The notes beneath the pieces were generated by a model. It saw only the letters and a program-made list of their open reading frames with translations, was not told the origin of the DNA and ran no database searches. Positions 21,141-64,000 of a DNA stretch of 64,000 nt are shown here, piece after piece; position 1 is the stretch's first letter; the number at the start of each line of letters is the position of its first letter. A program made the position numbers and the translations under genes. The DNA is from Escherichia coli (GTDB lineage Bacteria; Pseudomonadota; Gammaproteobacteria; Enterobacterales; Enterobacteriaceae), in assembly GCF_030013595.1 (NCBI RefSeq), contig NZ_CP122768.1; one strand, given 5' to 3'.

Positions 21141-21251
21141 TGCGAGCAGCATTCCTGATTTTAAACGTGAACGCCGCTGGAAGAATTATCAGGTATAGAA
21201 TGGCGTTGGGTGCTTGAGGCTGTCTGGCGTTAAGCATTCGCGAGGTTCCAG

Positions 21252-21356
21252 ATGGACAAAAGCCCCAGGCGATATTTCTATCAACCTGAGGCCAGCGTTC
21301 GAACCCAAACAATTCGAATGTTAGTCTCTTCTTTGCAGGGAGGCAAGGCATGCTGA
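21252..21356 (+). CDS. Mok-like leader ORF overlapping the hok start (candidate translational-coupling frame)
   Basis: 34-codon [37 protein letters not shown] ending in TGA that overlaps the hok ATG; architecture typical of hok/sok loci. Confidence 0.3.
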
Positions 21357-21502
21357 CAAAATATGCCCTTGTGGCAATCATAGTGCTGTGTTTTACAGTA
21401 CTGGGATTCACGCTGATGGTAGGCGACTCGTTGTGTGAGTTGAGTATCAGAGAACGTGGTATGGAGTTTAAGGCAGTTCTCGCTTACGAATCGAAGAAGT
21501 AG
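21350..21502 (+). CDS. Hok/Gef-family type I toxin (50 aa)
   Basis: [50 protein letters not shown]: single TM helix, conserved SLCE and C-terminal AxxAYE motif of Hok family; SD gcagggagg upstream; resembles the HokE-type sequence as I recall it. Confidence 0.75.
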
Positions 21503-21513
21503 CCACCACGCGG

Positions 21514-21523
21514 GGGTAAAACC
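21514..21523. repeat. Left copy of 10-bp target-site duplication (gggtaaaacc) of IS186
   Basis: Identical 10-mer at 22862..22871 immediately outside the other IS end. Confidence 0.8.
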
Positions 21524-22861
21524 CATAAGCGCTAACTTAAGGGTTGAACCATCTGAAGAATGCGACGCCTCGGTGCCTCGTTAAGACGATGCCTCGCGTT
21601 CTTCAATTGCGTTTTGTAGGCTGTCAGGGATACTGTCCCACGAATGGCCACCTGTAAGCTCCAGATGACCATTTTTGTTATTCTCCACAACGAGTTAGTT
21701 CTTCTTTTCGGATCCGGCACTTCTGGGGGGAAATCCAGCGATGGCTGGATTATGTCGTCAATTAAAAATGCGGCGAGTAGATTAGCAAATATCCACGCTT
21801 TCGCGAGTTCAGGTTCCTTTGCACGCAAAGCATCCAGGTGCAGCAAACTTTTGAGCCGCTTAAAAGCCAGTTCAATTTGCCATCGCAGACGGTAACAATC
21901 AGCCACTTGCTCTGCTGAATATTCATCTTCCGGTAATGATGTTAGCAATAGCACATGGCCCGCTGCTTCCAGCGTTTCCGCCTGAACTACTCGTCCTTTT
22001 CGACGATTCTCGCTGAGCAGTCGGGTTTTACTGATTAATGCTTTTTCGGGAGGAAGTGATACGGCAATGAGACGTGCCGGAAAGGGAGCTCCGGCTTTTT
22101 TATTACCTGAATTGCCTATCATTACAGTGGTTTCACCGTTCTTACCGCAATCCAGCCCGCGCAGAAAACCCATCATGTCAAAGCGCATTCCTTCTGCAGT
22201 TAACCAGCGCAATCCTCGCCAGTGAACCCGGACGATATAATCAGCTTCTCCAAAAGCAAGTGAGCGGATACATTCGGGACGCGAACCGAATCCCCGGTCA
22301 GCAATGCGTATCTCGTCTGCCGTTTGCGCAAATCGGTCCAGCCGTTCAGCGTCTCTGCTGTCGGTTAGCTCAAAATCAGTGAACTGACAGGTATGAGGAT
22401 CATATCCCATATGTAGTCGCCATTCAGCGCTGCCGCCCCCGGGCGCACTGATTGCTGTTCCATCGACAAGACGCAATCTCTTTCCGCTTGTACAACCCGT
22501 AACTGCGGCGCGTACAGCAAGTGTTTGTGCGGCAAGTATGCCAAACCAGTCGGCGGCATTCCGCAGCCGCTTCAGGAGAGCCACGTCAGATAATGTTGCA
22601 ACGTCATGGAGCTGAGCCCATGCAGTGACTTCACGTAATGACATCCCCCCGGGGCCGTAAGCCAGCCCCAGACGTAGCAGAGTTGCAGCATCACGAATTT
22701 CGCGGCGGCGGGTTAGAGCCCCGGCATTACGTGCCGAAGTATCCAGTTCTTCGGGCTTACCAATATGGGCCAGAATTGCTGACCAGTTATCGTGAGAGTA
22801 ATTCATCGGCACGTTAAATCATATCAGGCGTAATACCACAACCCTTAAGTTAGCGCTTATG
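21524..22861 (-). mobile_element. IS186 (IS4 family), complete 1338-bp copy with 23-bp perfect terminal inverted repeats
   Basis: IRL cataagcgctaacttaagggttg at 21524..21546 and its exact reverse complement at 22839..22861; single transposase ORF inside; length 1338 bp matches IS186. Confidence 0.92.
21532..22812 (-). CDS. insL: IS186 transposase (longest ORF; the conventional annotation may start at the internal Met MSLREV at complement 22644)
   Basis: ORF MPMNYSHDNWSAILAHIGKPEELDTSARNAG... recognised as IS186/IS421 transposase. Confidence 0.9.
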   Translation of the reverse strand: MPMNYSHDNWSAILAHIGKPEELDTSARNAGALTRRREIRDAATLLRLGLAYGPGGMSLREVTAWAQLHDVATLSDVALLKRLRNAADWFGILAAQTLAVRAAVTGCTSGKRLRLVDGTAISAPGGGSAEWRLHMGYDPHTCQFTDFELTDSRDAERLDRFAQTADEIRIADRGFGSRPECIRSLAFGEADYIVRVHWRGLRWLTAEGMRFDMMGFLRGLDCGKNGETTVMIGNSGNKKAGAPFPARLIAVSLPPEKALISKTRLLSENRRKGRVVQAETLEAAGHVLLLTSLPEDEYSAEQVADCYRLRWQIELAFKRLKSLLHLDALRAKEPELAKAWIFANLLAAFLIDDIIQPSLDFPPEVPDPKRRTNSLWRITKMVIWSLQVAIRGTVSLTAYKTQLKNARHRLNEAPRRRILQMVQPLS

Positions 22862-22871
22862 GGGTAAAACC
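22862..22871. repeat. Right copy of 10-bp target-site duplication (gggtaaaacc) of IS186
   Basis: Matches 21514..21523. Confidence 0.8.
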
Positions 22872-22977
22872 CCGCGTATTGAATTGTTAAAGTTTGGCCT
22901 CCTGCACCCCTTTTTTATACTCTGTTTCTGGTGGCATTGATTTCCTGCAGGCAAGGGAGTAATCATTTTCAAACCCA

Positions 22978-31842: not shown

Positions 31843-32982
31843 ATGAGCGCGGGAAGCCCAAAATTCACCGTTCGCCGCATTGCGGCTTTGTCACTGGTTT
31901 CGCTATGGCTGGCAGGCTGTTCTGACACTTCAAATCCACCGGCCCCGGTCAGCTCCGTTAATGGCAATGCGCCTGCAAATACCAATTCTGGTATGTTGAT
32001 TACGCCGCCGCCGAAAATGGGGACGACGTCTACAGCTCAGCAACCGCAAATTCAGCCGGTACAGCAGCCACAAATTCAGGCAACTCAACAACCGCAAATC
32101 CAGCCGGTGCAGCCAGTAGCTCAGCAGCCGGTACAGATGGAAAACGGACGCATCGTCTACAACCGTCAGTATGGGAACATTCCGAAAGGCAGTTATAGCG
32201 GCAGTACCTATACCGTGAAAAAAGGCGACACACTTTTCTATATCGCCTGGATTACTGGCAACGATTTCCGTGACCTTGCTCAGCGCAACAATATTCAGGC
32301 ACCATACGCGCTGAACGTCGGTCAGACCTTACAGGTGGGTAATGCTTCCGGTACGCCAATCACTGGCGGAAATGCCATTACCCAGGCCGATGCAGCAGAG
32401 CAAGGAGTTGTGATCAAGCCTGCACAAAATTCCACCGTTGCTGTTGCTTCGCAACCGACAATTACGTATTCTGAGTCTTCGGGTGAACAGAGTGCTAACA
32501 AAATGTTGCCGAACAACAAGCCAACTGCGACCACGGTCACAGCGCCTGTAACGGTACCAACAGCAAGCACAACCGAGCCGACTGTCAGCAGTACATCAAC
32601 CAGTACGCCTATCTCCACCTGGCGCTGGCCGACTGAGGGCAAAGTGATCGAAACCTTTGGCGCTTCTGAGGGGGGCAACAAGGGGATTGATATCGCAGGC
32701 AGCAAAGGACAGGCAATTATCGCGACCGCAGATGGCCGCGTTGTTTATGCCGGTAACGCACTGCGCGGCTACGGTAATCTGATTATCATCAAACATAATG
32801 ATGATTACCTGAGTGCCTACGCCCATAACGACACAATGCTGGTCCGGGAACAACAAGAAGTGAAGGCGGGGCAAAAAATAGCAACCATGGGTAGCACCGG
32901 AACCAGTTCAACACGCTTGCATTTTGAAATTCGTTACAAGGGGAAATCCGTAAACCCGCTGCGTTATTTGCCGCAGCGATAA
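31843..32982 (+). CDS. nlpD: Murein hydrolase activator lipoprotein NlpD (LysM + M23 domains)
   Basis: 379-aa ORF, lipobox LAGC, QQPQIQ tandem repeats, LysM, degenerate M23 domain. Confidence 0.93.
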
Positions 32983-33044
32983 ATCGGCGGAACCAGGCTT
33001 TTGCTTGAATGTTCCGTCAAGGGATCACGGGTAGGAGCCACCTT

Positions 33045-34037
33045 ATGAGTCAGAATACGCTGAAAGTTCATGATTTAAATGAAGATGCGGAATTTGATGA
33101 GAACGGAGTTGAGGTTTTTGACGAAAAGGCCTTAGTAGAAGAGGAACCCAGTGATAACGATTTGGCCGAAGAGGAACTGTTATCGCAGGGAGCCACACAG
33201 CGTGTGTTGGACGCGACTCAGCTTTACCTTGGTGAGATTGGTTATTCACCACTGTTAACGGCCGAAGAAGAAGTTTATTTTGCGCGTCGCGCACTGCGTG
33301 GAGATGTTGCCTCCCGCCGCCGGATGATCGAGAGTAACTTGCGTCTGGTGGTAAAAATTGCCCGCCGTTATGGCAATCGTGGTCTGGCGTTGCTGGACCT
33401 GATCGAAGAGGGCAACCTGGGGCTGATCCGCGCGGTAGAGAAGTTTGACCCGGAACGTGGTTTCCGCTTCTCAACATACGCAACCTGGTGGATTCGCCAG
33501 ACGATTGAACGGGCGATTATGAACCAAACCCGTACTATTCGTTTGCCTATTCACATCGTAAAGGAGCTGAACGTTTACCTGCGAACCGCACGCGAGTTGT
33601 CCCATAAACTGGACCACGAACCAAGTGCGGAAGAGATCGCAGAGCAACTGGATAAGCCAGTTGATGACGTCAGCCGTATGCTTCGTCTTAACGAGCGCAT
33701 TACCTCGGTAGACACCCCGCTGGGTGGTGATTCCGAAAAAGCGTTGCTGGACATCCTGGCCGATGAAAAAGAGAACGGTCCGGAAGATACCACGCAAGAT
33801 GACGATATGAAGCAGAGCATCGTCAAATGGCTGTTCGAGCTGAACGCCAAACAGCGTGAAGTACTGGCACGTCGATTCGGTTTGCTGGGGTACGAAGCGG
33901 CAACACTGGAAGATGTAGGTCGTGAAATTGGCCTCACCCGTGAACGTGTTCGCCAGATTCAGGTTGAAGGCCTGCGCCGTTTGCGCGAAATCCTGCAAAC
34001 GCAGGGGCTGAATATCGAAGCGCTGTTCCGCGAGTAA
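33045..34037 (+). CDS. rpoS: RNA polymerase sigma factor RpoS (sigma-38), full length; codon 33 = GAG (Glu)
   Basis: 330-aa [38 protein letters not shown]...; start at ATG 33045. Confidence 0.97.
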
Positions 34038-34052
34038 GTAAGCATCTGTCAG

Positions 34053-34089
34053 AAAGGCCAGTCTCAAGCGAGGCTGGCCTTTTTCTTTT
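34053..34089 (+). terminator. rpoS rho-independent terminator
   Basis: aggccag...ctggcct stem followed by ttttctttt. Confidence 0.65.
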
Positions 34090-34157
34090 GGTTGGGAAGT
34101 CGGTGTGTTTTGTCGCCTGGATAAGACTCGTCAGCGTCCTACCCGGCAATCAGCATC

Positions 34158-34565
34158 CTATTTGCTCATCATCTTGCGCACCAACTGCATAAACAGCTCC
34201 TTCTCTTCTGCACTCAAACGCCCCAAAAATTCCTCATCCACACTGTCACCAATGGGGATCGCCGCAGCAAGTACCTTTTCTCCTTCGGCAGTCAGCCAGA
34301 CAAAGCGACGCCGCTTGTCAGCGGCGTCATGTTCACGTCTGACTAAGCCACGATTTTCCATTCTTGCCAACATTTCTGCCAGCGTTGCTTTGGTGCTGAC
34401 TGCTGCTTCTATCAGTGCCACCTGTTCGATACCAGGCTTATCAGCAATGGCGCGCATCACCGCGTACTGTGGTTTGGTGAGGTCAGGTAACTCGTGCTGC
34501 CAGCGAGCCGTGTGCTGCTGAAAAAGCTGTCGTAACTGATGGAACGCTTTATTTCGTAACGCCAT
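34158..34565 (-). CDS. MarR/SlyA-family transcriptional regulator
   Basis: 135-aa from complement ATG 34565 (MALRNKAFHQLRQLF...), winged-helix region; divergent from decarboxylase operon. Confidence 0.75.
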   Translation of the reverse strand: MALRNKAFHQLRQLFQQHTARWQHELPDLTKPQYAVMRAIADKPGIEQVALIEAAVSTKATLAEMLARMENRGLVRREHDAADKRRRFVWLTAEGEKVLAAAIPIGDSVDEEFLGRLSAEEKELFMQLVRKMMSK

Positions 34566-34711
34566 GTAAACTCCGGGCAAACTATCTGCCGCTATCATAG
34601 CGGTTTTTCAGTGACGAAGAAGATGTTGTTACTTTTCAGTGCTTGCCGCGATGAAAACAGAGGCGTATTTTAATAATGACGTTCGTATACGAACAATTAA
34701 GAGAATAAACA

Positions 34712-35305
34712 ATGAGACTGATCGTCGGGATGACAGGGGCTACCGGTGCGCCTCTTGGGGTGGCATTACTGCAAGCGCTGCGGGAGATGCCGAATGTCGA
34801 GACTCATCTGGTGATGTCGAAGTGGGCGAAAACCACTATTGAACTGGAAACGCCTTACAGCGCTCGCGATGTTGCCGCCCTCGCAGACTTCAACCATAAC
34901 CCGGCGGATCAGGCGGCGACTATCTCTTCCGGCTCCTTTCGTACCGACGGCATGATCGTTATTCCATGCAGTATGAAAACGCTCGCCGGTATCCGCGCTG
35001 GTTACGCCGATGGTCTCGTGGGGCGCGCGGCGGACGTCGTGCTCAAAGAAGGCCGCAAACTGGTGCTGGTGCCGCGTGAAATGCCGCTTAGCACAATCCA
35101 TCTCGAAAATATGCTCGCACTTTCGCGCATGGGCGTGGCGATGGTGCCGCCGATGCCTGCCTTTTATAACCATCCCGAAACGGTAGATGACATTGTCCAC
35201 CACGTGGTAGCCCGCGTGCTGGATCAATTTGGCCTCGAACATCCTCACGCCAGGCGCTGGCAAGGATTGCCGCAGGCCCGGAATTTTTCTCAGGAGAATG
35301 AATAA
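34712..35305 (+). CDS. ecdB: UbiX-like flavin prenyltransferase (phenolic acid decarboxylase subunit B, Pad1-like)
   Basis: 197-aa MRLIVGMTGATGAPLGVALLQAL..., UbiX/Pad1 flavoprotein signature. Confidence 0.85.
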   Translation: MRLIVGMTGATGAPLGVALLQALREMPNVETHLVMSKWAKTTIELETPYSARDVAALADFNHNPADQAATISSGSFRTDGMIVIPCSMKTLAGIRAGYADGLVGRAADVVLKEGRKLVLVPREMPLSTIHLENMLALSRMGVAMVPPMPAFYNHPETVDDIVHHVVARVLDQFGLEHPHARRWQGLPQARNFSQENE

Positions 35306-36732
35306 TGGCATTTGATGATTTACGCAGCTTTTTACAGGCGCTTGATGACCACGGCCAGTTACTGAAAATCAGCGAAGAGGTGAACGCGGAACCGGATCTG
35401 GCAGCCGCTGCCAACGCCACCGGACGTATCGGCGATGGTGCACCGGCGCTGTGGTTTGACAATATTCGCGGCTTTATCGATGCCCGCGTGGCAATGAATA
35501 CCATCGGTTCCTGGCAGAACCACGCGATTTCCCTCGGCCTGCCGCCAAACACCCCGGTTAAAAAGCAGATTGATGAGTTTATCCGCCGCTGGGATAACTT
35601 CCCCATTACCCCGGAGCGCCGCGCCAATCCAGCCTGGGCGCAGAACACCGTCGATGGCGACGAGATCAACCTGTTCGATATTCTGCCGCTGTTTCGTTTA
35701 AACGACGGTGATGGCGGTTTCTATCTCGATAAAGCGTGCGTGGTTTCCCGCGATCCGCTCGACCCGGATAACTTCGGCAAGCAGAACGTCGGCATCTACC
35801 GCATGGAAGTGAAGGGCAAACGTAAGCTCGGCCTGCAACCGGTGCCGATGCACGATATCGCTCTGCATCTGCATAAAGCGGAAGAACGCGGTGAAGATCT
35901 GCCGATTGCCATCACCCTGGGTAACGATCCGATCATCACCCTGATGGGCGCCACGCCGCTGAAATACGATCAGTCTGAGTACGAAATGGCGGGCGCGCTG
36001 CGCGAAAGCCCGTACCCGATCGCCACCGCCCCGCTGACCGGTTTTGATGTGCCGTGGGGCTCGGAAGTGATCCTCGAAGGGGTTATCGAAAGTCGTAAAC
36101 GTGAGATTGAAGGGCCGTTCGGTGAGTTTACCGGTCACTACTCCGGCGGGCGTAACATGACCGTGGTGCGTATCGATAAAGTCTCTTACCGTACCAAACC
36201 GATTTTCGAATCGCTCTATCTTGGTATGCCGTGGACCGAAATCGACTACCTGATGGGGCCTGCCACCTGCGTGCCGCTGTATCAGCAACTGAAAGCCGAG
36301 TTCCCGGAAGTGCAGGCGGTAAACGCCATGTACACCCACGGCCTGTTGGCGATTATCTCCACCAAAAAACGCTACGGCGGCTTTGCCCGCGCGGTGGGCC
36401 TGCGTGCAATGACCACGCCGCACGGTCTGGGCTACGTGAAGATGGTGATTATGGTCGATGAAGACGTTGATCCGTTCAACCTGCCGCAGGTGATGTGGGC
36501 GCTCTCCTCGAAAGTGAACCCGGCAGGCGACCTGGTGCAGTTGCCAAATATGTCCGTGCTGGAACTCGACCCTGGCTCAAGCCCGGCGGGGATCACCGAC
36601 AAGCTGATTATCGACGCCACCACGCCTGTCGCCCCGGACAACCGTGGTCACTACAGCCAGCCGGTGGTGGATTTACCGGAAACCAAAGCCTGGGCTGAAA
36701 AACTGACTGCTATGCTGGCCGCACGTAAATAA
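35305..36732 (+). CDS. ecdC: UbiD-family (de)carboxylase (phenolic acid decarboxylase subunit C)
   Basis: 475-aa ORF; TAATG overlap with upstream gene. Confidence 0.85.
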   Translation: MAFDDLRSFLQALDDHGQLLKISEEVNAEPDLAAAANATGRIGDGAPALWFDNIRGFIDARVAMNTIGSWQNHAISLGLPPNTPVKKQIDEFIRRWDNFPITPERRANPAWAQNTVDGDEINLFDILPLFRLNDGDGGFYLDKACVVSRDPLDPDNFGKQNVGIYRMEVKGKRKLGLQPVPMHDIALHLHKAEERGEDLPIAITLGNDPIITLMGATPLKYDQSEYEMAGALRESPYPIATAPLTGFDVPWGSEVILEGVIESRKREIEGPFGEFTGHYSGGRNMTVVRIDKVSYRTKPIFESLYLGMPWTEIDYLMGPATCVPLYQQLKAEFPEVQAVNAMYTHGLLAIISTKKRYGGFARAVGLRAMTTPHGLGYVKMVIMVDEDVDPFNLPQVMWALSSKVNPAGDLVQLPNMSVLELDPGSSPAGITDKLIIDATTPVAPDNRGHYSQPVVDLPETKAWAEKLTAMLAARK

Positions 36733-36742
36733 GGAGAACAAG

Positions 36743-36979
36743 ATGATTTGTCCACGTTGTGCCGATGAACAGATTGAAGTGATGGCGAAATCGCCGGTGA
36801 AAGATGTCTGGACGGTCTACCAGTGCCAGCATTGCCTTTATACCTGGCGCGATACCGAACCGCTACGCCGCACTAGCCGCGAACATTATCCCGAAGCGTT
36901 CCGCATGACGCAGAAAGATATTGATGACGCGCCGATGGTGCCGAGCATCCCGCCGCTGCTGGCGGAAGGTAAGCGCTAA
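36743..36979 (+). CDS. ecdD: Small Cys-rich subunit D of phenolic acid decarboxylase
   Basis: 78-aa MICPRCADEQIEVMAKSPVKDVWTVYQCQHCLYTW..., CxxC...CxxC; 10 bp after ecdC. Confidence 0.7.
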   Translation: MICPRCADEQIEVMAKSPVKDVWTVYQCQHCLYTWRDTEPLRRTSREHYPEAFRMTQKDIDDAPMVPSIPPLLAEGKR

Positions 36980-43829: not shown

Positions 43830-46391
43830 TTACACCAGACTCTTCAAGCGATAAATCCACTCCAGCGCCTGACGCGGAGTCAGTGAATCCGGGTCGAGAT
43901 TTTCCAGTGCTTCGACCGCAGGCGAAGTTTCTTCTGGCACTGACAGCAAAGACATTTGCGTACCATCCACTTGCGTAGCGGCGGCGTTCGGCGAAATGCT
44001 TTCCAGCTCACGCAGTTTTTGCCGTGCGCGCTTAATAACCTCTTTTGGCACGCCGGCCAGAGCTGCAACCGCCAGGCCGTAGCTTTTGCTCGCTGCGCCA
44101 TCCTGCACGCTGTGCATAAAGGCAATGGTGTCGCCGTGCTCCAGTGCATCGAGATGCACGTTGGCGACGCCTTCCATTTTCTCCGGTAACTGGGTCAGCT
44201 CGAAATAGTGGGTAGCAAACAACGTCAACGCTTTAATCTTATTCGCCAGATTTTCCGCGCACGCCCACGCCAGCGACAGACCATCGTAAGTGGACGTTCC
44301 ACGCCCAATCTCATCCATCAGCACCAGACTGTACTCGGTGGCGTTATGTAAAATATTGGCGGTTTCGGTCATTTCCACCATAAAGGTTGAACGCCCGGAT
44401 GCCAGATCATCCGCTGCCCCTACGCGGGTAAAGATGCGATCGATAGGTCCAATCTTGACTTTTTGTGCCGGTACATAGCTGCCGATGTAGGCCATCAGCG
44501 CAATCAGTGCGGTCTGGCGCATATAGGTACTTTTACCGCCCATATTCGGACCGGTAATGATCAACATGCGACGCTGCGGCGACAGGTTCAGCGGGTTGGC
44601 GATAAACGGCTCATTCAGCACCTGTTCAACCACCGGATGGCGGCCTTCGGTGATGCGAATACCCGGTTTATCAATAAAGGTCGGGCAGGTGTAGTTCAGC
44701 GTATAGGCCCGTTCCGCCAGGTTCACCAGCACGTCGAGTTCCGCCAGCGCGCTCGCGCTCTGTTGCAACGCTTCCAGATGCGGCAACAGCAGGTCGAACA
44801 ACTCTTCATAAAGCTGTTTTTCCAGTGCCAGTGCTTTGCCTTTTGAAGTGAGAACTTTGTCTTCGTACTCTTTTAGCTCTGGAATAATGTAGCGCTCGGC
44901 GTTTTTCAGCGTCTGGCGACGCATGTAATTGATGGGTGCCAGATGGCTTTGTCCACGGCTGATCTGAATGTAATAACCATGAACCGCGTTAAAGCCGACT
45001 TTCAGGGTGTCCAGGCCAGTACGTTCACGCTCGCGGACTTCCAGACGCTCCAGATAATCGGTCGCGCCGTCAGCCAGCGCGCGCCACTCATCCAGCTCTT
45101 CGTTATAGCCCGATGCGATAACACCACCGTCGCGTACCAGCACTGGCGGTGTGTCGATGATTGCCCGCTCCAGCAGATCGCGCAGCTCGGCAAACTCGCC
45201 CATTTTTTCACGTAGCGCCTGTACCGGAGCGCTATCGACATTTTCTAACTGCGCACGCAGCTCCGGCAGTTGCTGGAAAGCGTGACGCATACGGGCCAGA
45301 TCGCGTGGGCGAGCAGTTCGTAAAGCCAGACGCGCCAGAATACGTTCCAGGTCGCCGACCTGACGCAGCACCGGCTGTAGCTCGGCGGTGAAATCCTGCA
45401 ATGCGCCAATAGTTTGCTGGCGCTCAAGCAACACGCGGGTATCGCGCACTGGCATATGCAGCCAGCGTTTCAGCATACGACTACCCATCGGCGTTACAGT
45501 GCAGTCGAGCACTGAAGCCAGCGTGTTTTCCGCACCGCCCGCCAGGTTCTGGGTAATTTCCAGGTTACGACGCGTCGCGGCATCCATAATGATGCTGTCC
45601 TGCTCACGTTCCATAGTGATAGAACGAATATGCGGCAGAGTCGTACGTTGGGTATCTTTCGCATACTGCAACAGACAACCGGCAGCACAAAGTCCGCGCG
45701 GCGCGTTCTCGACGCCAAAACCGACCAGATCGCGGGTGCCAAATTGCAGATTCAACTGCTGGCGCGCGGTGTCGATTTCAAACTCCCACAGCGGACGACG
45801 GCGCAGACCGCGACGACCTTCAATCAGCGACATCTCAGCAAAATCTTCTGCATATAGCAGTTCCGCCGGATTAGTGCGTTGCAGTTCTGCCGCCATCGTT
45901 TCCCGGTCAGCCGGTTCGCTCAGGCGAAAACGACCGGAACTGATATCCAGCGTCGCGTAGCCGAAACCTTTACTGTCCTGCCAGATAGCCGCCAGCAGAT
46001 TGTCCTGGCGCTCTTGTAACAGGGCTTCATCGCTGATGGTGCCTGGCGTAACGATACGCACAACTTTGCGCTCAACCGGACCTTTGCTGGTCGCCGGATC
46101 GCCAATTTGTTCGCAGATGGCAACGGACTCTCCCTGATTCACCAGTTTGGCGAGATAGTTTTCCACCGCATGGTAGGGGATCCCCGCCATCGGGATCGGC
46201 TCTCCCGCTGAAGCACCGCGTTTGGTCAGTGAAATATCCAGCAGCTGCGAGGCGCGTTTCGCGTCGTCATAAAACAGTTCGTAAAAGTCACCCATCCGAT
46301 AGAACAGCAGGATCTCGGGATGCTGGGCTTTCAGCTTGAGATACTGCTGCATCATTGGCGTATGGGCATCAAAATTTTCTATTGCACTCAT
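43830..46391 (-). CDS. mutS: DNA mismatch repair protein MutS
   Basis: 853-aa [43 protein letters not shown]..., Walker [10 protein letters not shown]. Confidence 0.98.
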
Positions 46392-46677
46392 GGGGTTATG
46401 TCCGGTTCCCTGATATTAAATGGGGTGTGATGGTTTTTATTTTCGTTGTAATCACATAAGGCGCACATGATACCGGAGTTAATCATTTCAGGGGAAGAAG
46501 CGAACGGCGAGTTCTTGATGGTGATTCCGCGAAAGATGCTGTTTTGCAGCTTTTGCGTGATGCTTATGAAGCAGGTACGCAAAATTGCGTCGGTTGAATA
46601 AACCTCCTCCTTCAGAGCCATAGTCCCCTTTCAAATTAAGTTGTAATATAAATACACCTTAAGAGTATGGAGGCAGC

Positions 46678-47022
46678 ATGTCCGGCAAGCGTATCTCTCG
46701 TGAAAAACTGACGATTAAAAAAATGATCGATCTTTATCAAGCGAAATGCCCGCAGGCGTCAGCGGAGCCGGAGCATTACGACGCGCTGTTTGCCTACGCG
46801 CAAAAGCGGCTGGATAAATGTGTGTTCGGCGAAGAGAAACCAGCCTGTAAGCAGTGTCCGGTGCACTGTTACCAGCCTGCAAAGCGTGAAGAGATGAAAC
46901 AGATTATGCGTTGGGCCGGGCCGAGAATGCTGTGGCGTCATCCGATCTTAACCGTGCGTCATCTCATCGATGACAAGCGTCCGGTGCCGGAGTTGCCAGA
47001 AAAATATCGTCCAAAGAAATAA
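46678..47022 (+). CDS. ygbA: Nitrous oxide-stimulated promoter family protein
   Basis: 114-aa ORF with CPQ...CKQCPVHCY Cys motifs; position next to mutS. Confidence 0.8.
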   Translation: MSGKRISREKLTIKKMIDLYQAKCPQASAEPEHYDALFAYAQKRLDKCVFGEEKPACKQCPVHCYQPAKREEMKQIMRWAGPRMLWRHPILTVRHLIDDKRPVPELPEKYRPKK

Positions 47023-47026
47023 ATCT

Positions 47027-47049
47027 GCCGGAGAGCCATACTCTCCGGC
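47027..47049. terminator. Hairpin between convergent ygbA and mop gene
   Basis: gccggagag-ccata-ctctccggc. Confidence 0.5.
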
Positions 47050-47060
47050 AAATAAGGCGT

Positions 47061-47489
47061 TTACGCTTTGGTGGCAATCAGGATGGCTGATGCTTTGATC
47101 AATGCAATAACGCGCGAGCCAGTGGTGAGTTTCATTTCATCCTGACTTTCATTTGTTACCACTGCCACAATTTCAAAACCCGCATCCGTTTTGATATGGA
47201 CAGTGGCGTTCACTGCGCCTTCGGTGATTGTCGACACGCTGCCAGCAAACTGGTTGCGAGCAGAGAATTTCAGTCCACAGTCTTCCGTTGCCAGCGTGAC
47301 CCACGGGGCTTTAATCAGGGCAATCGCTTCTTTCCCTTTTGCCAGACCCAGAGCCTGCTGGCTGCTGTGAGTCACAATTGCCACCAGCTTTGCACCACCT
47401 GCCAGCGTCAGTTCTACTTCATCATTCACAGCGCCCATTGCTACTGCGCTAACTGTTCCGGTTAATTGATTTCTTGCTGAAACTGCCAT
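47061..47489 (-). CDS. Molybdenum-pterin/molybdate-binding protein with two tandem Mop (TOBE) domains
   Basis: 142-aa MAVSARNQLTGTVSAV...IALIKAPWVTLATE and SARNQFAGSVSTI...IALIKASAILIATK internal duplication; AAGGAGG SD upstream of complement ATG 47489. Confidence 0.7.
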   Translation of the reverse strand: MAVSARNQLTGTVSAVAMGAVNDEVELTLAGGAKLVAIVTHSSQQALGLAKGKEAIALIKAPWVTLATEDCGLKFSARNQFAGSVSTITEGAVNATVHIKTDAGFEIVAVVTNESQDEMKLTTGSRVIALIKASAILIATKA

Positions 47490-47533
47490 ACTGCCTCCTT
47501 TCATTGAATGTTGATCGAGTATAACCACATCTG

Positions 47534-49612
47534 TTAAATCAATGCCGATTTATCAATTCCCAGCCGCTTCATCCGTGACAGCAGGGTCGTGCGTTTCAGC
47601 CCCAGACGTTGCGCAGCGCCTTTAGGCCCGGCAACCACGCCGTTGGTTTCTTTCAGCACGCGCACAATCAACTGATATTCATCTTCGCCCTCCTGGGCGA
47701 CAACCGTTGCGGCAGGCGGCGTTTCAGGCTCCGGTAAAGCAATATCTGGCAATGACAGCTGCAGCACGTTGCCGCGTGTTAGCAATACTGCGCGCTCAAT
47801 GACGTTTTCCAGTTCGCGTACGTTACCCGGCCACTCCATGTTGCTCAAGGTGCGCAGCGTCTCGGCAGGAATGCTGTCGATATTGCGCCCCAGACGACGG
47901 GCAATTTTGAAGGTAAAGGCTTTCGCCAGCAGCGGAATATCTTCCGGACGCTCGCGTAGTGGCGGCAGGTGAATCGGGAATACGTTCAGGCGGTAATAGA
48001 GATCGCTACGGAACTCTCGGTCGGCGACCATTTTTTTCAGATCGCGGTTAGTTGCGGCAATTAAACGTACGTCCGTCTGAATGATTTTGTTGCTGCCGAG
48101 ACGTTCAAACTCCTGTTCCTGCAATACACGCAGCAACTTCGGCTGTAACTCCAGTGGCATATCGCCCACTTCGTCGAGGAACAGAGAGCTTTTATCCGCC
48201 AGTTCAAAACGACCAATGCGCTGGGCGCTGGCACCGGTAAAAGCCCCACGCTCATGACCAAACAGATCGCTCTCCAGCAATCCGGCAGGCATCGCCGCGC
48301 AGTTCATTTTGACCATGCGGCGATTATTACGCCCACTGAGATTATGGATAGCACGGGCAATCAGCTCTTTACCCGTGCCAGTTTCACCGAGGATCAGCAC
48401 GGTACTGTCACTTTGCGCCACCATTTCAACTTGTTTAAGCACGCTGTACATGGCTTCGCTGCGGCCAATAATCTCGCCAAATTCACTATCAACATTGTTG
48501 AGCTGCTCGGTCAGGGCGAGGTTTTCATCAACCAGCCGTTCTTTCAGACGATGGATTTCCTGATAGGCGAGGGCGTTATCGACAGCGATTGCCACACGTT
48601 CGGCAATCTGGCGCAGTAAATTCAGATTGGTAGTGGTAAAGACTTTCTCTTCGCATTGCGCCAGTTTCAGCACGCCCAGCATGGTGTCGCCAGACATCAG
48701 CGGTAACAGGCACAAGGTTTGAATCTGGTTGCCCCAGGTGTCGAACAACATGCGTTCATAGGGGGCTAAATCGTCCCGCTCGTGGAGATTAATCAACAGC
48801 ATCTCTTTACTTTTGAAGACGCGTTCGGTGAGGGTTCCGGCTTCATCGACTTCGCTCTGTTCGTGGGCGGGATGCTGTTTATCAAGATAGTGAGTGGAGT
48901 AGATGTTGAGTTTGTTTTTACGGTGGCTGCGTAAGACGATGCTGATATCGTCAATGTCGAAGTAGTAATGGATTTCTTTGGCGACTTCGCTGACCAGTTC
49001 GTCCATATCCAGGCGGGAAAGCACCGCGTTGGTAATGGCAACCAGGATGCGGAAGTTATCGCGTTCCCGGCATAACAACTCATAGTCGACATTGTTAACG
49101 ACGCGGCTCTGGATTTGTTCGGTGACGACAGAAACGATCTGCGTAAATGTTTGCAGACGATTGAACTCTTTTTCGCTCCAGGGGCGATCGTCATAACGAA
49201 TAAATTCACAGCCACCAAAAATATGCCCTTCCGCCGCCAGTGGCATCAGGCAATAGTGACCAAATTTGGGGTATAGCCCACCTGCGGCCAGCTGCGGCCA
49301 GGTTTCACAAAATTCTTCGTAACTGCAATGCAGCGTATCAGGGCGCGACAAAATGCTGCGTACCGGACCGTGTGCCAGAACAGTTTCGTCTTCATATTTA
49401 ATGGGGGTGTCTTTTTCACGCGACGCGTAATAAGACGCACGTTGAGTCTGCGCTTGCCACAACACAATAGCCGCGTTGTCGGCGAGCGCAGAACGCTTTA
49501 CCAGTAGCGAAAGAGCCTCACACAGCGAGGCCAGATCGGGCTGCTGCAATAGTGTCCGAGTGATGTCGAACAACCCTTGTTGTCCGAGATCACTCATCGG
49601 TGTATATGACAT
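47534..49612 (-). CDS. fhlA: Formate hydrogenlyase transcriptional activator (sigma54-dependent, GAF + AAA+ + HTH)
   Basis: 692-aa MSYTPMSDLGQQGLFDITRTLLQQPDLASL..., sigma54-interaction motifs GETGTGKE and GAFTGA. Confidence 0.96.
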   Translation of the reverse strand: MSYTPMSDLGQQGLFDITRTLLQQPDLASLCEALSLLVKRSALADNAAIVLWQAQTQRASYYASREKDTPIKYEDETVLAHGPVRSILSRPDTLHCSYEEFCETWPQLAAGGLYPKFGHYCLMPLAAEGHIFGGCEFIRYDDRPWSEKEFNRLQTFTQIVSVVTEQIQSRVVNNVDYELLCRERDNFRILVAITNAVLSRLDMDELVSEVAKEIHYYFDIDDISIVLRSHRKNKLNIYSTHYLDKQHPAHEQSEVDEAGTLTERVFKSKEMLLINLHERDDLAPYERMLFDTWGNQIQTLCLLPLMSGDTMLGVLKLAQCEEKVFTTTNLNLLRQIAERVAIAVDNALAYQEIHRLKERLVDENLALTEQLNNVDSEFGEIIGRSEAMYSVLKQVEMVAQSDSTVLILGETGTGKELIARAIHNLSGRNNRRMVKMNCAAMPAGLLESDLFGHERGAFTGASAQRIGRFELADKSSLFLDEVGDMPLELQPKLLRVLQEQEFERLGSNKIIQTDVRLIAATNRDLKKMVADREFRSDLYYRLNVFPIHLPPLRERPEDIPLLAKAFTFKIARRLGRNIDSIPAETLRTLSNMEWPGNVRELENVIERAVLLTRGNVLQLSLPDIALPEPETPPAATVVAQEGEDEYQLIVRVLKETNGVVAGPKGAAQRLGLKRTTLLSRMKRLGIDKSALI

Positions 49613-49685
49613 TTTGTTCTTCCAGGAAAGCACCGCAAAGCGGTGCAAAAGGTCATTGACTAACTATAGGAGATTTAGAATTTTA

Positions 49686-50696
49686 TTAGCATATACGCGG
49701 TAACGGTTCGGCGTGTGGTAAATCGAGGGTTCGTTTCACGCCATACAGACCGGCAAGACGAACACCTTTACGTTCCACCACTTCACCAATCAGCGCCGCG
49801 TCTTTCCCCAGTGGATGGGAATGTAACGCTGCCAGCACTTGCTCTGCCGCGTTGCGTTCAACGGCGATCACCAGTTTGCCTTCGTTGGCAAAGTTAAGGG
49901 CGTCCAGTCCCAGCAGTTCGCAAACGCCGCGCACGGCTGGTTTAACCGGCAGTGCCGCTTCTGAAATTTCAATACCACAACCGCAGGCTGCCGCGAACTC
50001 ATGTACCACCGCGTTTACACCACCACGGGTGGCATCACGCAGCGCTTTCACGCTGGGAATGTCACGCAGCGTCTGAATAAGCGGCGTTAGTACCGCACAG
50101 TCGCTGACCAGTTCGCCATCCAGCCCCAGCTGCTCACGCAGGTTAAGGATAGTCGCCCCGTGATCGCCGAGCGTGCCGCTCACCAGCAATACATCGCCTG
50201 CGGTTAGCGTCTGTGCGCCCCAGTGAATATTCGCCGGAATTGCGCCCATGCCAGCGGTGTTGATAAACAGTTTATCTGCCGCGCCGCGCTGCACCACTTT
50301 AGTATCGCCAGTAACGATGGCAATGCCTGCCGCGCGGGCGGTTTCTGCCATGCTGGTCACTACGGCTTTCAGTGTCTCCATCGGCAATCCTTCTTCGAGG
50401 ATAAAGCCACAGGAGAGATAGCGTGGAATAGCGCCACTGACCGCAACGTCATTCGCGGTGCCGCAAATCGCCAGCTTGCCGATATTACCGCCAGGAAAGA
50501 ACAGCGGGTCAATGACGTAACTGTCGGTGGAGAATGCCAGACGATCGCCTTCCGCTACCAGCTGCGCCAGATCAAGACGGGCCTGATCTTCCTGTTCTGC
50601 CAGCCACGGGTTGGCAAAGGCTTCCATAAACAGGCTGTTGATTAATTGCTGCATCGCCTGGCCGCCGCTGCCGTGGGCGAGTTGGATATTATTCAC
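49686..50696 (-). CDS. hypE: Hydrogenase maturation carbamoyl dehydratase HypE
   Basis: 336-aa ORF ending ...PRIC. Confidence 0.95.
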   Translation of the reverse strand: MNNIQLAHGSGGQAMQQLINSLFMEAFANPWLAEQEDQARLDLAQLVAEGDRLAFSTDSYVIDPLFFPGGNIGKLAICGTANDVAVSGAIPRYLSCGFILEEGLPMETLKAVVTSMAETARAAGIAIVTGDTKVVQRGAADKLFINTAGMGAIPANIHWGAQTLTAGDVLLVSGTLGDHGATILNLREQLGLDGELVSDCAVLTPLIQTLRDIPSVKALRDATRGGVNAVVHEFAAACGCGIEISEAALPVKPAVRGVCELLGLDALNFANEGKLVIAVERNAAEQVLAALHSHPLGKDAALIGEVVERKGVRLAGLYGVKRTLDLPHAEPLPRIC

Positions 50697-51814
50697 GCTT
50701 CATTCTCCTGCTGACGATACTGATACCACGCGGCGCACGCTCCTTCGGAGGAGACCATCAGTGCACCAAATGCGGTTTGAGGATTACAGGTGTTACCAAA
50801 CAGCGGGCATTGATGCGGCTTACATTTGCCCGTTAATACTTCACCACAACGCGCGCGCGGGTCATCGCAGACCTGCTGCGGTGCCGGGCGGAAATGTGCT
50901 TCGGCATCGAATCGTTGATAATCCGGCGTCAGGTGCACGCCAGAAGATTCAATCACGCCTAAGCCACGCCATTCGCTGTCGCCGTTGACACAGAACACAT
51001 CAGCAATTGCCTGTTGCGCCAGCAGGTTACCGGCATCCGGCACCACCCGACGATACTGATTCTCTACCTTGCTGTGGGCCGCTATTTTCTGCTCCACCAG
51101 CATGACCACGCCTTGCAGTAGATCAAGGGGTTCGAAACCAGCGACCACCAGCGGACGATGAAAATCGCTGGCGATAAAATTATAGGCATCAGTGCCGATA
51201 ACCATACTAACGTGGCCCGGCGCGAGGAACGCGTCGATACCGTTATCCGGCTGTTCCAGCAAACTGCGCAGCGTCGGGATAAGCGTAATATGCTGGCAGA
51301 AGAAGTAAAAATTCTGCACATCGCGGGCTTTTGCCTGTTGCAGAGTGATGGCCGTCGTCGGCATGGTGGTTTCAAAACCTAAGCCGAAGAATACCACTTT
51401 ACGGGTTGGATTCTCCTGCGCCAGTTTCAACGCATCCATTGGCGAGTAAACGATGCGCACATCGGCACCGCGTGCTTTTGCCTGCAACAGCGATCCCTGT
51501 TTCCCCGGCACGCGCATGGCGTCGCCAAAGGTACAGAAGATGACTTCCGGATGGCTGGCAATCTCCACGCAGGTGTCGATTCTACCCATCGGCAGTACAC
51601 ACACCGGGCAACCGGGACCGTGGATAAACTCAACGTTTTCCGGCAGCAACTGATCGAGGCCGAATTTAAAAATGGCGTGGGTATGACCGCCACACACTTC
51701 CATAATCCGCAGAGGGCGTTCGGCGGTGTAAGAGAGATATGAAGCACGTTCGCGCAGATGCTCAATTAACTGCATCACCTGTTCCGGCGCGCGATATTCA
51801 TCAACAAAACGCAT
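50693..51814 (-). CDS. hypD: Hydrogenase maturation factor HypD
   Basis: 373-aa ORF with CGxH and CPVC motifs. Confidence 0.95.
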   Translation of the reverse strand: MRFVDEYRAPEQVMQLIEHLRERASYLSYTAERPLRIMEVCGGHTHAIFKFGLDQLLPENVEFIHGPGCPVCVLPMGRIDTCVEIASHPEVIFCTFGDAMRVPGKQGSLLQAKARGADVRIVYSPMDALKLAQENPTRKVVFFGLGFETTMPTTAITLQQAKARDVQNFYFFCQHITLIPTLRSLLEQPDNGIDAFLAPGHVSMVIGTDAYNFIASDFHRPLVVAGFEPLDLLQGVVMLVEQKIAAHSKVENQYRRVVPDAGNLLAQQAIADVFCVNGDSEWRGLGVIESSGVHLTPDYQRFDAEAHFRPAPQQVCDDPRARCGEVLTGKCKPHQCPLFGNTCNPQTAFGALMVSSEGACAAWYQYRQQENEA

Positions 51815-52086
51815 TATTTTTCCTCGCCATACAACAGCGCGCCGACATCTGGCTCAACGTCAAACATGTTTTGTAAGGCGTCGAGAGTGTCGCGTGCTTC
51901 GGCTTCATTAATTACGCTCATGGCAAAGCCAACGTGAACCAGTACCCACTGGCCTACGCGTGGCTGACCGTTTTCATCGCAGCTGCCGACTAACGTTAAA
52001 TCGACATCGCGCTGAATGCCGCAGACGTCGACTTTCGCCTGGTTGCCGTCAATGGTGCGGATCTGGCCGGGAACGCCTATGCACAT
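51814..52086 (-). CDS. hypC: Hydrogenase maturation chaperone HypC
   Basis: 90-aa [15 protein letters not shown]... Confidence 0.9.
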
Positions 52087-52949
52087 CGCTGTGTCTCCAG
52101 CCAGTTCAGCCACTGGTCCATCCCTTCGCCGCTGGTGGCGGAAATAAGGATGATTTCAATTTCTGGATTGACTTCGCGGGCGCAGGCGATGCACTTCTCA
52201 ACGTCAAAGTTGAGATACGGCAGCAGGTCAACTTTGTTGAGCAGCATCAGTGAGGCGGCGGCAAACATATGCGGATATTTCAGCGGTTTGTCTTCACCTT
52301 CGGTAACGGAAAGCACCGCCACTTTGTGTTTTTCACCGAGATCGAAGCTGGCCGGGCACACGAGGTTGCCGACGTTTTCGATAAACAGAATACCGTTATC
52401 GTCCAGTGGCAGGCGCGGTGCGGCGTCGGCAATCATCTGTGCGTCAAGATGGCAGCCTTTACCGGTATTCACCTGAATCGCTGGTGTGCCGGTAGCGCGA
52501 ATGCGTGCGGCATCGTTCACGGTTTGCTGATCGCCTTCAATAACCGCGCACGGAACGCTGTCTTTCAGGCGCATTAAGGTTTCCGTCAGCAGGGTGGTTT
52601 TACCGGAACCAGGGCTGGAAACCAGGTTGAGCACCAGTTGCTTGCGGGCAGCAAAGCGCGCGCGGTTGCGTTCAGCCAGACGGTTATTTTTGTCCAGCAC
52701 GTCAATTTCGACTTCCAGCATCCGACGCTGGCTCATGCCCGGCGCGTGAGTACCCGCTTCGCCATGACCGTAATGCAGGTCGCCTTCTTCAGTCTGGCTG
52801 GGGGTAAATTCAGGCGCTTTAATGCCGGTGATTTTCATCTTCGGGCGTGCCGCCGGGGCAAATGGCGCGCTACGAAACGCGGAATGAGGGTTATGTTCAT
52901 CACCCTCGATATACAGGTTGCCTTCACCGCAACCGCATGTTGTACACAT
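52077..52949 (-). CDS. hypB: Hydrogenase nickel incorporation GTPase HypB
   Basis: 290-aa [10 protein letters not shown]... with G-domain GSGKTT. Confidence 0.95.
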
Positions 52950-52952
52950 CGC

Positions 52953-53303
52953 TCACTCCTGGTCTATTTCTATCCGCCGAATCTGTAAACCGTCGTCTGC
53001 CACAATCTGTAGCATGTCACCATGACACTGTGGACAGCGGCGGACGCGCTGGGTCAGTAGCGTCACATACTGTTGGCATGTTTCACACCAGCATTCGGCC
53101 TCTTGTTCTTCGAGGTGCAGTTTACAACCTTCCGCCACGCTGCCGCGGCAAACCAGATCAAAACAAAAGGCAAGAGAGCTGGTTTCGACACAAGAAAATG
53201 CGCCAATTTTGAGCCAGACCCCAGTTACGCGTTTTGCGCCGTGTTTTGCGGCCTGCTGTTCGATCAATTCCAGTGCCCGTTGGCAGAGGGTTATTTCGTG
53301 CAT
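52953..53303 (-). CDS. hypA: Hydrogenase nickel insertion protein HypA
   Basis: 116-aa MHEITLCQRALELIEQQA..., CxxC...CxxC zinc site. Confidence 0.9.
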   Translation of the reverse strand: MHEITLCQRALELIEQQAAKHGAKRVTGVWLKIGAFSCVETSSLAFCFDLVCRGSVAEGCKLHLEEQEAECWCETCQQYVTLLTQRVRRCPQCHGDMLQIVADDGLQIRRIEIDQE

Positions 53304-53333
53304 ATCGCCTCCCATTAACTATTGCCAGCTACA

Positions 53334-53349
53334 AGCAATAATTGTGCCA
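53334..53349 (-). promoter_or_regulatory. Candidate sigma54 promoter for hyp operon (TGGCAC-N5-TTGCT on minus strand)
   Basis: Reverse complement of 53334..53349 reads tggcacaattattgct, the -24/-12 consensus; about 30 nt upstream of hypA ATG. Confidence 0.5.
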
Positions 53350-53462
53350 GTGTTGATTATCCCTGCGGTGAATAATGTCGATGATGTCGAAATGACACGT
53401 CGACACGGCGACGAAATTCATCTTTAGCTTAAAAATCGTTTTAATAACAATGAATTAAAAGT

Positions 53463-53478
53463 TGGCACAGAAAATGCT
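53463..53478 (+). promoter_or_regulatory. Candidate sigma54 promoter for hyc operon (TGGCAC-N5-ATGCT)
   Basis: tggcacagaaaatgct with GG-N10-GC spacing, about 37 nt upstream of hycA ATG. Confidence 0.5.
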
Positions 53479-53514
53479 TAAAGCTGGCATCTCTGTTAAA
53501 CGGGTAACCTGACA

Positions 53515-53976
53515 ATGACTATTTGGGAAATAAGCGAGAAAGCCGATTACATCGCACAGCGGCATCGTCGCCTACAGGACCAGTGGCACATCTACTGCAA
53601 TTCGCTGGTTCAGGGGATCACGTTATCGAAAGCGCGCCTGCATCACGCCATGAGCTGCGCGCCGGACAAAGAACTCTGTTTCGTCCTTTTTGAACATTTT
53701 CGCATTTACGTCACCCTGGCGGATGGCTTTAACAGCCACACCATCGAGTATTACGTCGAAACAAAAGATGGTGAAGACAAACAGCGGATTGCGCAGGCGC
53801 AACTGAGCATTGACGGCATGATTGATGGCAAGGTCAACATCCGCGATCGCGAACAGGTTCTGGAACACTATCTCGAAAAAATCGCTGGCGTTTACGACAG
53901 CTTATACACCGCCATTGAAAACAATGTGCCGGTGAATTTAAGCCAACTGGTAAAGGGACAAAGCCCGGCAGCATGA
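53515..53976 (+). CDS. hycA: Formate hydrogenlyase regulatory protein HycA
   Basis: 153-aa MTIWEISEKADYIAQRHRRLQDQWHIY... Confidence 0.9.
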   Translation: MTIWEISEKADYIAQRHRRLQDQWHIYCNSLVQGITLSKARLHHAMSCAPDKELCFVLFEHFRIYVTLADGFNSHTIEYYVETKDGEDKQRIAQAQLSIDGMIDGKVNIRDREQVLEHYLEKIAGVYDSLYTAIENNVPVNLSQLVKGQSPAA

Positions 53977-54100
53977 GCTGAGGCTTTGCCCGTTTTGCAG
54001 GCGTTACGCCTGTTTGGGGATGGGCGTGTCGATGAGTGTCGAAAATGACATTTCATCGGCATGTTTTCGTCAAAAATGACAATCACCTGAGGAATGCCTG

Positions 54101-54712
54101 GTGAATCGTTTTGTAATTGCTGACTCCACGCTCTGTATCGGCTGCCACACCTGTGAGGCCGCCTGTTCAGAGACGCATCGCCAGCACGGCCTGCAATCAA
54201 TGCCGCGCCTGCGAGTGATGCTCAATGAAAAAGAATCTGCGCCGCAGCTCTGTCACCACTGTGAAGATGCGCCCTGCGCGGTGGTCTGCCCGGTTAACGC
54301 CATCACCCGCGTTGATGGGGCCGTGCAGTTGAATGAAAGTCTGTGCGTAAGCTGCAAACTGTGCGGCATCGCCTGCCCGTTTGGCGCAATTGAATTTTCC
54401 GGCAGCCGTCCGCTGGATATTCCGGCAAACGCCAATACCCCGAAAGCGCCACCGGCACCGCCTGCTCCGGCGCGTGTCAGCACATTGCTTGACTGGGTGC
54501 CAGGTATTCGCGCGATCGCCGTCAAATGTGACCTTTGTAGCTTTGATGAACAAGGTCCGGCCTGCGTGCGGATGTGCCCGACTAAAGCCCTGCATCTGGT
54601 GGATAACACCGATATCGCCCGCGTCAGCAAACGTAAGCGTGAGCTGACTTTTAACACGGACTTTGGCGATCTCACCTTGTTTCAGCAGGCTCAAAGTGGA
54701 GAGGCTAAATGA
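54101..54712 (+). CDS. hycB: Formate hydrogenlyase 4Fe-4S ferredoxin subunit
   Basis: 203-aa ORF with four CxxCxxCxxxCP motifs. Confidence 0.95.
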   Translation: MNRFVIADSTLCIGCHTCEAACSETHRQHGLQSMPRLRVMLNEKESAPQLCHHCEDAPCAVVCPVNAITRVDGAVQLNESLCVSCKLCGIACPFGAIEFSGSRPLDIPANANTPKAPPAPPAPARVSTLLDWVPGIRAIAVKCDLCSFDEQGPACVRMCPTKALHLVDNTDIARVSKRKRELTFNTDFGDLTLFQQAQSGEAK

Positions 54713-56535: not shown

Positions 56536-56537
56536 GA

Positions 56538-57461
56538 ATGAGTGTTTTATATCCGTTAATTCAGGCGCTGGTGTTATTTGCCGTTGCGCCGCTGCTCTCC
56601 GGTATAACCCGCGTGGCGCGCGCCCGCTTGCATAACCGTCGCGGGCCGGGCGTGTTGCAGGAGTATCGCGACATTATCAAACTGCTGGGCCGCCAGAGTG
56701 TTGGCCCGGATGCCTCCGGCTGGGTGTTCCGCCTGACGCCGTATGTGATGGTGGGCGTCATGCTGACTATCGCTACTGCGCTGCCGGTGGTGACCGTTGG
56801 TTCTCCGCTGCCGCAGCTGGGCGATTTGATCACCTTGCTGTATCTCTTTGCCATCGCGCGTTTCTTCTTTGCCATTTCTGGTCTGGATACCGGTAGCCCG
56901 TTTACTGCTATCGGCGCGAGCCGTGAAGCGATGCTTGGCGTGCTGGTCGAACCGATGCTGCTGCTTGGTCTGTGGGTTGCCGCACAGGTTGCCGGTTCCA
57001 CCAACATCAGCAACATCACCGACACCGTTTATCACTGGCCGCTGAGCCAGAGCATCCCGCTGGTGCTGGCGCTTTGTGCCTGTGCGTTCGCCACTTTTAT
57101 CGAAATGGGCAAACTGCCGTTCGACCTGGCGGAAGCCGAGCAGGAGTTGCAGGAAGGGCCGCTCTCTGAATACAGCGGTAGCGGCTTTGGCGTCATGAAA
57201 TGGGGTATCAGCCTGAAACAGCTGGTGGTGTTGCAGATGTTCGTCGGGGTGTTTATTCCGTGGGGACAAATGGAAACCTTCACCGTCGGTGGGCTGCTGC
57301 TGGCGCTGGTGATTGCCATCGTCAAACTGGTGGTTGGCGTCCTGGTTATCGCGCTGTTCGAAAACAGCATGGCCCGTCTGCGTCTTGATATTACTCCGCG
57401 CATTACCTGGGCTGGGTTTGGCTTTGCATTTTTAGCGTTCGTCTCCTTGCTGGCGGCGTGA
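56538..57461 (+). CDS. hycD: Formate hydrogenlyase membrane subunit 4 (NuoH-like)
   Basis: 307-aa polytopic ORF. Confidence 0.95.
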   Translation: MSVLYPLIQALVLFAVAPLLSGITRVARARLHNRRGPGVLQEYRDIIKLLGRQSVGPDASGWVFRLTPYVMVGVMLTIATALPVVTVGSPLPQLGDLITLLYLFAIARFFFAISGLDTGSPFTAIGASREAMLGVLVEPMLLLGLWVAAQVAGSTNISNITDTVYHWPLSQSIPLVLALCACAFATFIEMGKLPFDLAEAEQELQEGPLSEYSGSGFGVMKWGISLKQLVVLQMFVGVFIPWGQMETFTVGGLLLALVIAIVKLVVGVLVIALFENSMARLRLDITPRITWAGFGFAFLAFVSLLAA

Positions 57462-57478
57462 TTAAAGAGAGTTTGAGC

Positions 57479-59188: not shown

Positions 59189-59197
59189 GGAATCGCC

Positions 59198-60507: not shown

Positions 60508-60914
60508 GTGAAAAGGTGGTGTTCAGTCAACTGAGCCGTAAATTTATTGATGAGAACGATGCCACGCCCGCCGAGGCGCAGCAGGTGGTCTATTACAGCC
60601 TGGCGATTGGTCACCACCTTGGGGTTATCGATTGCCTGGAAGCGGCGCTCACCTGTCCGTGGGATGAATATCTGGCATGGATTGCCACTCTGGAGGCGGG
60701 CAGCGAAGCCCGCCGCAAAATGGAAGGCGTGCCGAAATATGGTGAGATTGTCATCGACATTAACCATGTGCCGATGCTGGCCAACGCATTCGATAAAGCC
60801 CGGGCAGCGCAAACTTCGCAGCAGAAGGAATGGAGTACAATGCTGTTAAGTATGCTGCATGATATTCATCAGGAAAACGCCATCTATTTGATGGTGAGGA
60901 GATTGCGTGACTGA
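60504..60914 (+). CDS. hycH: Formate hydrogenlyase maturation protein HycH
   Basis: 136-aa ORF, operon position. Confidence 0.9.

Positions 60915-63142: not shown

Positions 63143-64000
<858 letters not shown>

Follow-up and report, generated by a model that had tools for sequence, protein, structure and literature searches.

A full-length rpoS gene of natural-isolate type, with Glu at codon 33, in Escherichia coli

We find that the rpoS gene carried by a 64,000-nucleotide stretch of Escherichia coli DNA (the window) is, almost certainly, the ordinary wild-type gene of a natural-isolate-type, non-K-12 strain, and that it encodes a full-length sigma-S of 330 residues. Two features carry this reading:

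33045-34037, plus strand: rpoS coding sequence, product sigma-S (sigma-38), assigned from the list of open reading frames, the translation, the NCBIfam model NF004207 and the sigma-S chains of the PDB.
33141-33143, plus strand: codon 33, GAG (Glu), read directly and recomputed from the translation.

In the six-frame list of open reading frames, the gene lies within an open frame spanning 33009-34037 on the plus strand; the annotated start is the ATG at 33045, with GGGTAGGAGCCACCTT just before it, and the list and the translation together give 330 sense codons followed by a TAA stop that ends at 34037. The initial annotation had proposed an intact rpoS, open over 330 codons, with GAG at codon 33, and had named a frameshift elsewhere in the gene as the observation that would speak against it. 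Coordinates, frame length and codon all agree with that proposal, the product aligns end to end with E. coli sigma-S chains, and a search of the open reading frame list and the translation across 33045-34037 reveals neither a frameshift nor an internal stop.

Assignment of the product to RpoS, a group 2 member of the sigma-70 family, is supported by a score of 604.6 bits against the NCBIfam RpoS equivalog NF004207 (curated cut-off 394, E = 5e-182) and of 480.7 bits against TIGR02394 (cut-off 378.7), while the RpoD and RpoH models all fall under their own cut-offs on the window protein. Since this is a gene call rather than a statistical pattern, chance is of no concern at such an E value. Alignment over residues 1-330 shows sigma regions 1.2-4 to be uninterrupted, with the sole difference from the K-12 sigma-S chain 6kj6_F falling at residue 33, where the structure has Q and the window E; a second chain, 5ipl_F, was crystallised with Glu33, as in the window, and matches except at its residue 2 and its C-terminal end. 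The surrounding gene order, surE-pcm-nlpD-rpoS, is the enterobacterial one and is colinear with the annotated loci of PCN033, MG1655 and HCP5S3_I2. In the protein collection, at least 1,000 contigs carry the exact protein, under the name 'MULTISPECIES: RpoS [Enterobacteriaceae]', and the DNA is 100% identical over 993 nt to that of six complete genomes. Among these are PCN033 and HCP5S3_I2, in which the gene is annotated as WP_000081550.1, is without any difference in itself and sits in the same nlpD-rpoS context. Three further rpoS residues discussed in the literature are wild type here: V54 (GTG), I128 (ATC) and E243 (GAG).

Alignment to the reference alleles, the check proposed in the initial annotation, places the window gene outside the K-12 set. 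Relative to MG1655 rpoS (b2741), which has the same length and is identical at 329 of 330 residues, there are nine nucleotide differences; C97G, which replaces Gln33 by Glu, is the only one that changes the protein, and the other eight are synonymous (codons 88, 90, 119, 168, 183, 188, 191 and 273). The two strains also have identical NlpD proteins, and neither the proximal leader nor the terminator differs between them. MG1655 has CAG (Gln) at codon 33 and ygbN directly after rpoS, whereas the window has GAG and a 2.9 kb segment between the two genes, made up as follows:

34084-36978: segment absent from K-12, from the rpoS terminator to ygbN, delimited by a BLAST gap against MG1655.
34158-34598, minus strand: MarR/SlyA-like regulator (annotation, NCBIfam).
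34712-35305: vdcB (annotation, NCBIfam VdcB).
35305-36732: vdcC (annotation, NCBIfam VdcC).
36743-36979: vdcD (annotation, NCBIfam VdcD).

The earlier statement that the allele is not of MG1655 type is borne out on all of these points: the codon is GAG rather than CAG, the synonymous background is not that of K-12, and ygbN does not follow immediately. Nor does the gene belong with the K-12 rpoS(Am33) alleles of W3110, J53, HB101, TG1 and others, which have TAG at codon 33, whereas in the window this is a sense codon and the protein runs to full length. What it does carry is the GAG of the Glu33 allele of natural isolates, the ancestral form.

By annotation and NCBIfam matches, vdcB, vdcC and vdcD encode hydroxyarylic acid decarboxylase subunits. 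Typing of the mutS-rpoS region by its o454(ygbN)-nlpD pattern was defined by Ewers et al. (2014; PMC4209514), who place K-12 in pattern II and trace the first description of the 2.9 kb insert to O157:H7. The window shows the arrangement of pattern IV, with ygbN present and with kpdB, kpdC and kpdD (vdcBCD) and a slyA-like gene between ygbN and rpoS. PCN033 has the same arrangement, but its insert is only about 95-97.5% identical to that of the window, such that the structural type is shared and the allele is divergent.

Might the window nonetheless derive from a K-12 laboratory stock in which codon 33 either reverted to GAG or had always been GAG? The NlpD and RpoS proteins are otherwise identical to those of K-12, and Glu at codon 33 in some K-12 strains is mentioned by PMC2700278 in the passage where it cites Atlung (2002). 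Set against this are the eight further synonymous differences in rpoS, the MarR/vdcBCD insert, an identity to MG1655 of only 98.2-98.6% over a colinear 18 kb and of about 95% for the initial 2.2 kb of mutS (43-45 kb), and the content of the cysH-iap interval, which has a hok/sok locus and an IS element but no cas genes; the 64,000-nt window as a whole likewise contains none. HCP5S3_I2, a pig faeces isolate from the UK, matches the window at 100.0% identity over 45001-64000 and 99.97% over 22861-50000. The differences all lie outside rpoS and consist of an IS insertion (21525-22860), a few SNPs and changes in the spacers of the CRISPR array. We reject a K-12 origin on the synonymous differences, the level of identity, the insert, the absence of cas genes and the match to HCP5S3_I2, and regard it as hardly credible.

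To place the natural-isolate codon in the species, we searched 5,426 complete RefSeq E. coli genomes by megablast, with 55-nt queries that have the first base of codon 33 at their centre. The 28-nt seed word always spans the central base, so that a match needs at least 28 exact bases and classifies a genome by its central base only:

First base G (GAG query): 5,058 genomes, of which 4,832 match exactly (55/55).
First base C (CAG query): 228 genomes, of which 174 match exactly (55/55).
First base T (TAG query): 128 genomes, of which 121 match exactly (55/55).

The three counts add up to 5,414, which equals the total of genomes that match rpoS at all, the classes not being proven disjoint; the C class includes CTG besides CAG, and the T class includes at least one case that is not amber (NCTC9008). 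Taken by the first-base-G count, Glu33 accounts for about 93% of the complete genomes (5,058/5,426). Among the matches listed, K-12 derivatives make up nearly all of the C and T classes, with MG1655, BW25113, MC4100 and DH1 in the first class and W3110, J53, HB101, TG1 and RP437 in the second. Individual genomes depart from this pattern. DH1 has CTG (Leu33); EcN_Sk, a 5.05-Mb genome that is not K-12, has CAG, which indicates that Gln33 is not strictly limited to K-12; and in NCTC9008 a 5-nt duplication at codon 33 leaves rpoS frameshifted.

That codon 33 is a known polymorphic site, as first noted for this gene, agrees with the published record: PMC2700278 reports amber, Gln, Glu and Tyr in K-12 stocks, to which Leu (CTG) in DH1 can be added, and describes GAG as frequent in natural isolates and present in all VTEC strains tested. 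In the papers that cite them, the polymorphism is traced to Atlung (2002) and to Subbarayan and Sarkar (2004). Outside the species, the RpoS proteins of E. albertii, Leclercia and Klebsiella also have Glu33, reading VEEEPSD at this position. Because the outgroups share it, Glu33 is the ancestral residue of Escherichia and other enterics, with Gln, Leu and amber derived.

The same data bear on whether Glu33 could mark out a particular pathotype or lineage, as an informative or unusual character. The one point in favour of such a role is the contrast with MG1655; a G-first codon in 5,058 of 5,426 complete genomes from many hosts, Glu33 in outgroup genera and GAG in every VTEC strain tested (PMC2700278) all run counter to it. 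We consider the idea of a lineage marker scarcely tenable and reject it on the frequency data. At a frequency of about 93%, Glu33 conveys little beyond the statement that the strain is not a Gln, Leu or amber K-12 stock. The finding is, moreover, already known: this is the majority wild-type allele, and descriptions of both the codon-33 polymorphism and the mosaicism of the mutS-rpoS region go back to about 2000-2004. That the strain is no K-12 laboratory stock and has the standard sigma factor for general stress matters very little, and the use of this knowledge is limited to a note on quality or provenance, relevant to stress-resistance, biofilm and virulence phenotypes and to checks for laboratory contamination.

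With the natural-isolate allele in place, we turn to the protein that it encodes. Residues 1-53 hold 17 Asp or Glu against 3 Lys or Arg, and thus form an acidic N-terminal extension that contains residue 33. Alignment to TIGR02394, the proteobacterial RpoS model, begins only at residue 48, and with two more distant RpoS chains, 7f0r_F and 7vf9_F, it starts no earlier than residue 52, which places codon 33 outside the conserved sigma domains, in an N-terminal tail that is not itself conserved. The exact protein encoded in the window has been built, as a Gln33Glu variant of K-12 rpoS (PMC5405132); it was expressed, and it equalled K-12 RpoS in HPII catalase, in glycogen and in the survival of H2O2 and of cold. 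As for the amber-33 strains, PMC2763269 states, citing Rajkumari and Gowrishankar (2002) among others, that downstream initiation yields a partly active sigma-S that lacks residues 1-53.

These observations suggest a simple picture, in which the sigma-S of the window strain would direct RNA polymerase to general-stress and stationary-phase promoters, Glu33 is the ancestral residue, located in the acidic N-terminal extension, and Gln, Leu and amber are derived states, found mostly in K-12 laboratory stocks. A functional sigma factor, as the initial annotation had it, is accordingly best described as the favoured inference for the window strain, given that the protein is K-12 RpoS with Q33E and that this variant was active in PMC5405132. 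Identity to a tested protein, together with a leader and terminator identical to those of K-12, strongly supports the view that sigma-S is expressed and active in this strain as well.

The elements that flank the coding sequence are the following:

31843-32982, plus strand: nlpD, which holds the rpoS promoter (open reading frame list, comparison with MG1655).
32444-32472, plus strand: putative main rpoS promoter within nlpD, with -35 TTGCTT, a 17-nt spacer and -10 TATTCT.
32884-33044, plus strand: proximal rpoS leader of 161 nt, comprising the nlpD end, the intergenic region and the ribosome-binding site GGAG (comparison with MG1655).
34051-34084, plus strand: intrinsic terminator hairpin downstream of rpoS (terminator scan).

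The NlpD protein is identical to that of K-12; PGAP places the nlpD start of HCP5S3_I2 at 31888 in window coordinates. Between 32884 and 33044, which we take to be the stretch that holds the inhibitory hairpin and the pairing region of DsrA, RprA and ArcZ, the sequence is identical to that of MG1655, the nearest upstream difference being at 32883, and the 620 nt upstream of the gene hold only five differences, all synonymous in nlpD. On the other side, the sequence is the same as in K-12 up to 34083, which places the insert breakpoint relative to K-12 at the 3' edge of the terminator. At gathering thresholds, Rfam returned no match in or near rpoS, its sole match in the window being sok at 21208-21365. 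The main promoter is presumably that at 32444-32472, a position that we derive from the literature value of a 567-nt leader; a sigma-70 consensus scan of 32300-34250 reported no promoter-like site, this putative promoter included. A single difference from K-12, G>T at 32448, is synonymous in nlpD and falls within the presumed -35, which reads TTGCGT in K-12 and TTGCTT in the window. By a centred 55-mer megablast that scores the central base only, T at this position occurs in 325 of 5,426 complete genomes, SMS-3-5 among them. The level of sigma-S is strain-specific and depends on loci outside the window, such as rssB, crl, hfq and the small RNAs.

The substitution at 32448 raises the question of whether an intact rpoS frame might coexist with attenuated sigma-S activity, owing to cis variation of this kind, to other loci or to a hidden rpoS-mutant subpopulation. 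The change does alter the presumed -35, and PMC2700278 and PMC3074542 describe loss of rpoS as often selected and RpoS levels as strain-specific. Against attenuation, the 325 genomes with T, SMS-3-5 again included, indicate a standing natural polymorphism, and neither G nor T fits the -35 consensus at that position; moreover, K-12 has the same terminator and, from 32884 up to the ATG, the same leader sequence, and the coding sequence is that of the tested functional variant (PMC5405132). We judge attenuation to be quite improbable, and favour an ordinary, active sigma-S.

The locus as a whole is visibly mosaic. The rpoS DNA is 100% identical to that of phylogenetically scattered strains, such as PCN033, whereas the neighbouring vdcBCD insert, together with mutS and the hyp-hyc side, departs by 2-5% from almost every other complete genome. 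In BLAST alignments to PCN033, the flanks of the insert are 100% (rpoS) and 99.6-99.8% (ygbN-ygbI) identical to the window, and the insert itself (34084-36978) is set off by a sharp mosaic boundary. Such a pattern (rpoS at 100%, the vdc insert at about 95% and mutS at about 95-97% relative to PCN033) fits the known recombination history of the region. It is conceivable, if unlikely, that the rpoS segment is a recombinational patch in a rare pig-associated lineage and that the TTGCTT -35 might also alter sigma-S levels; were this so, the patch or the -35 effect would illustrate, on a small scale and in nature, how alleles or regulation are reshuffled at the mutS-rpoS hot spot.

Farther along, mutS (43830-46391) is intact and encodes 853 aa, but the allele is rare. 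Only the complete genomes of two pig isolates, HCP5S3_I2 and LCP30S3_I5, have it at 100% identity, with the next-best of 5,418 at 97.9%; relative to K-12 (first 2.2 kb only) and to PCN033, identity along the mutS stretch is about 95-97%. Over the mutS-hyp-hyc side as a whole (45001-64000), the next-best complete genome is only 97.4% identical. Judged by these identities, this side of the window was probably acquired in an old recombination event at the known mutS hot spot.

Several features distant from rpoS were also observed. Between cysH and iap, where K-12 has the type I-E cas operon, lies a hok/sok type I toxin-antitoxin locus (21208-21502; Rfam sok at 112 bits, with a 50-aa Hok open reading frame at 21350-21502). 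Between hok and iap, the window carries an IS4-family element of about 1.34 kb (21525-22860), with inverted repeats at 21508-21546 and 22839-22877, an open reading frame for a 426-aa transposase at 21532-22812 on the minus strand and a GGGGTAAAACC-like target duplication at its flanks. From its terminal repeats, we assume that the element resembles IS186. Its absence from HCP5S3_I2, which is otherwise 99.9-100% identical, indicates a recent insertion. An orphan type I-E CRISPR array (4323-4716), with about six copies of the repeat GAGTTCCCCGCGCCAGCGGGGATAAACCG, is located downstream of queE and adjoins ygcE; alignment to HCP5S3_I2 breaks up here, with 83-98% identity and many gaps, which suggests that the spacers differ in content or number. 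Finally, ygcG (2025-2942, minus strand) is apparently split into open reading frames at 2025-2450 and 2484-2942, in agreement with HCP5S3_I2, where ygcG is annotated as a pseudogene with an 'internal stop'.
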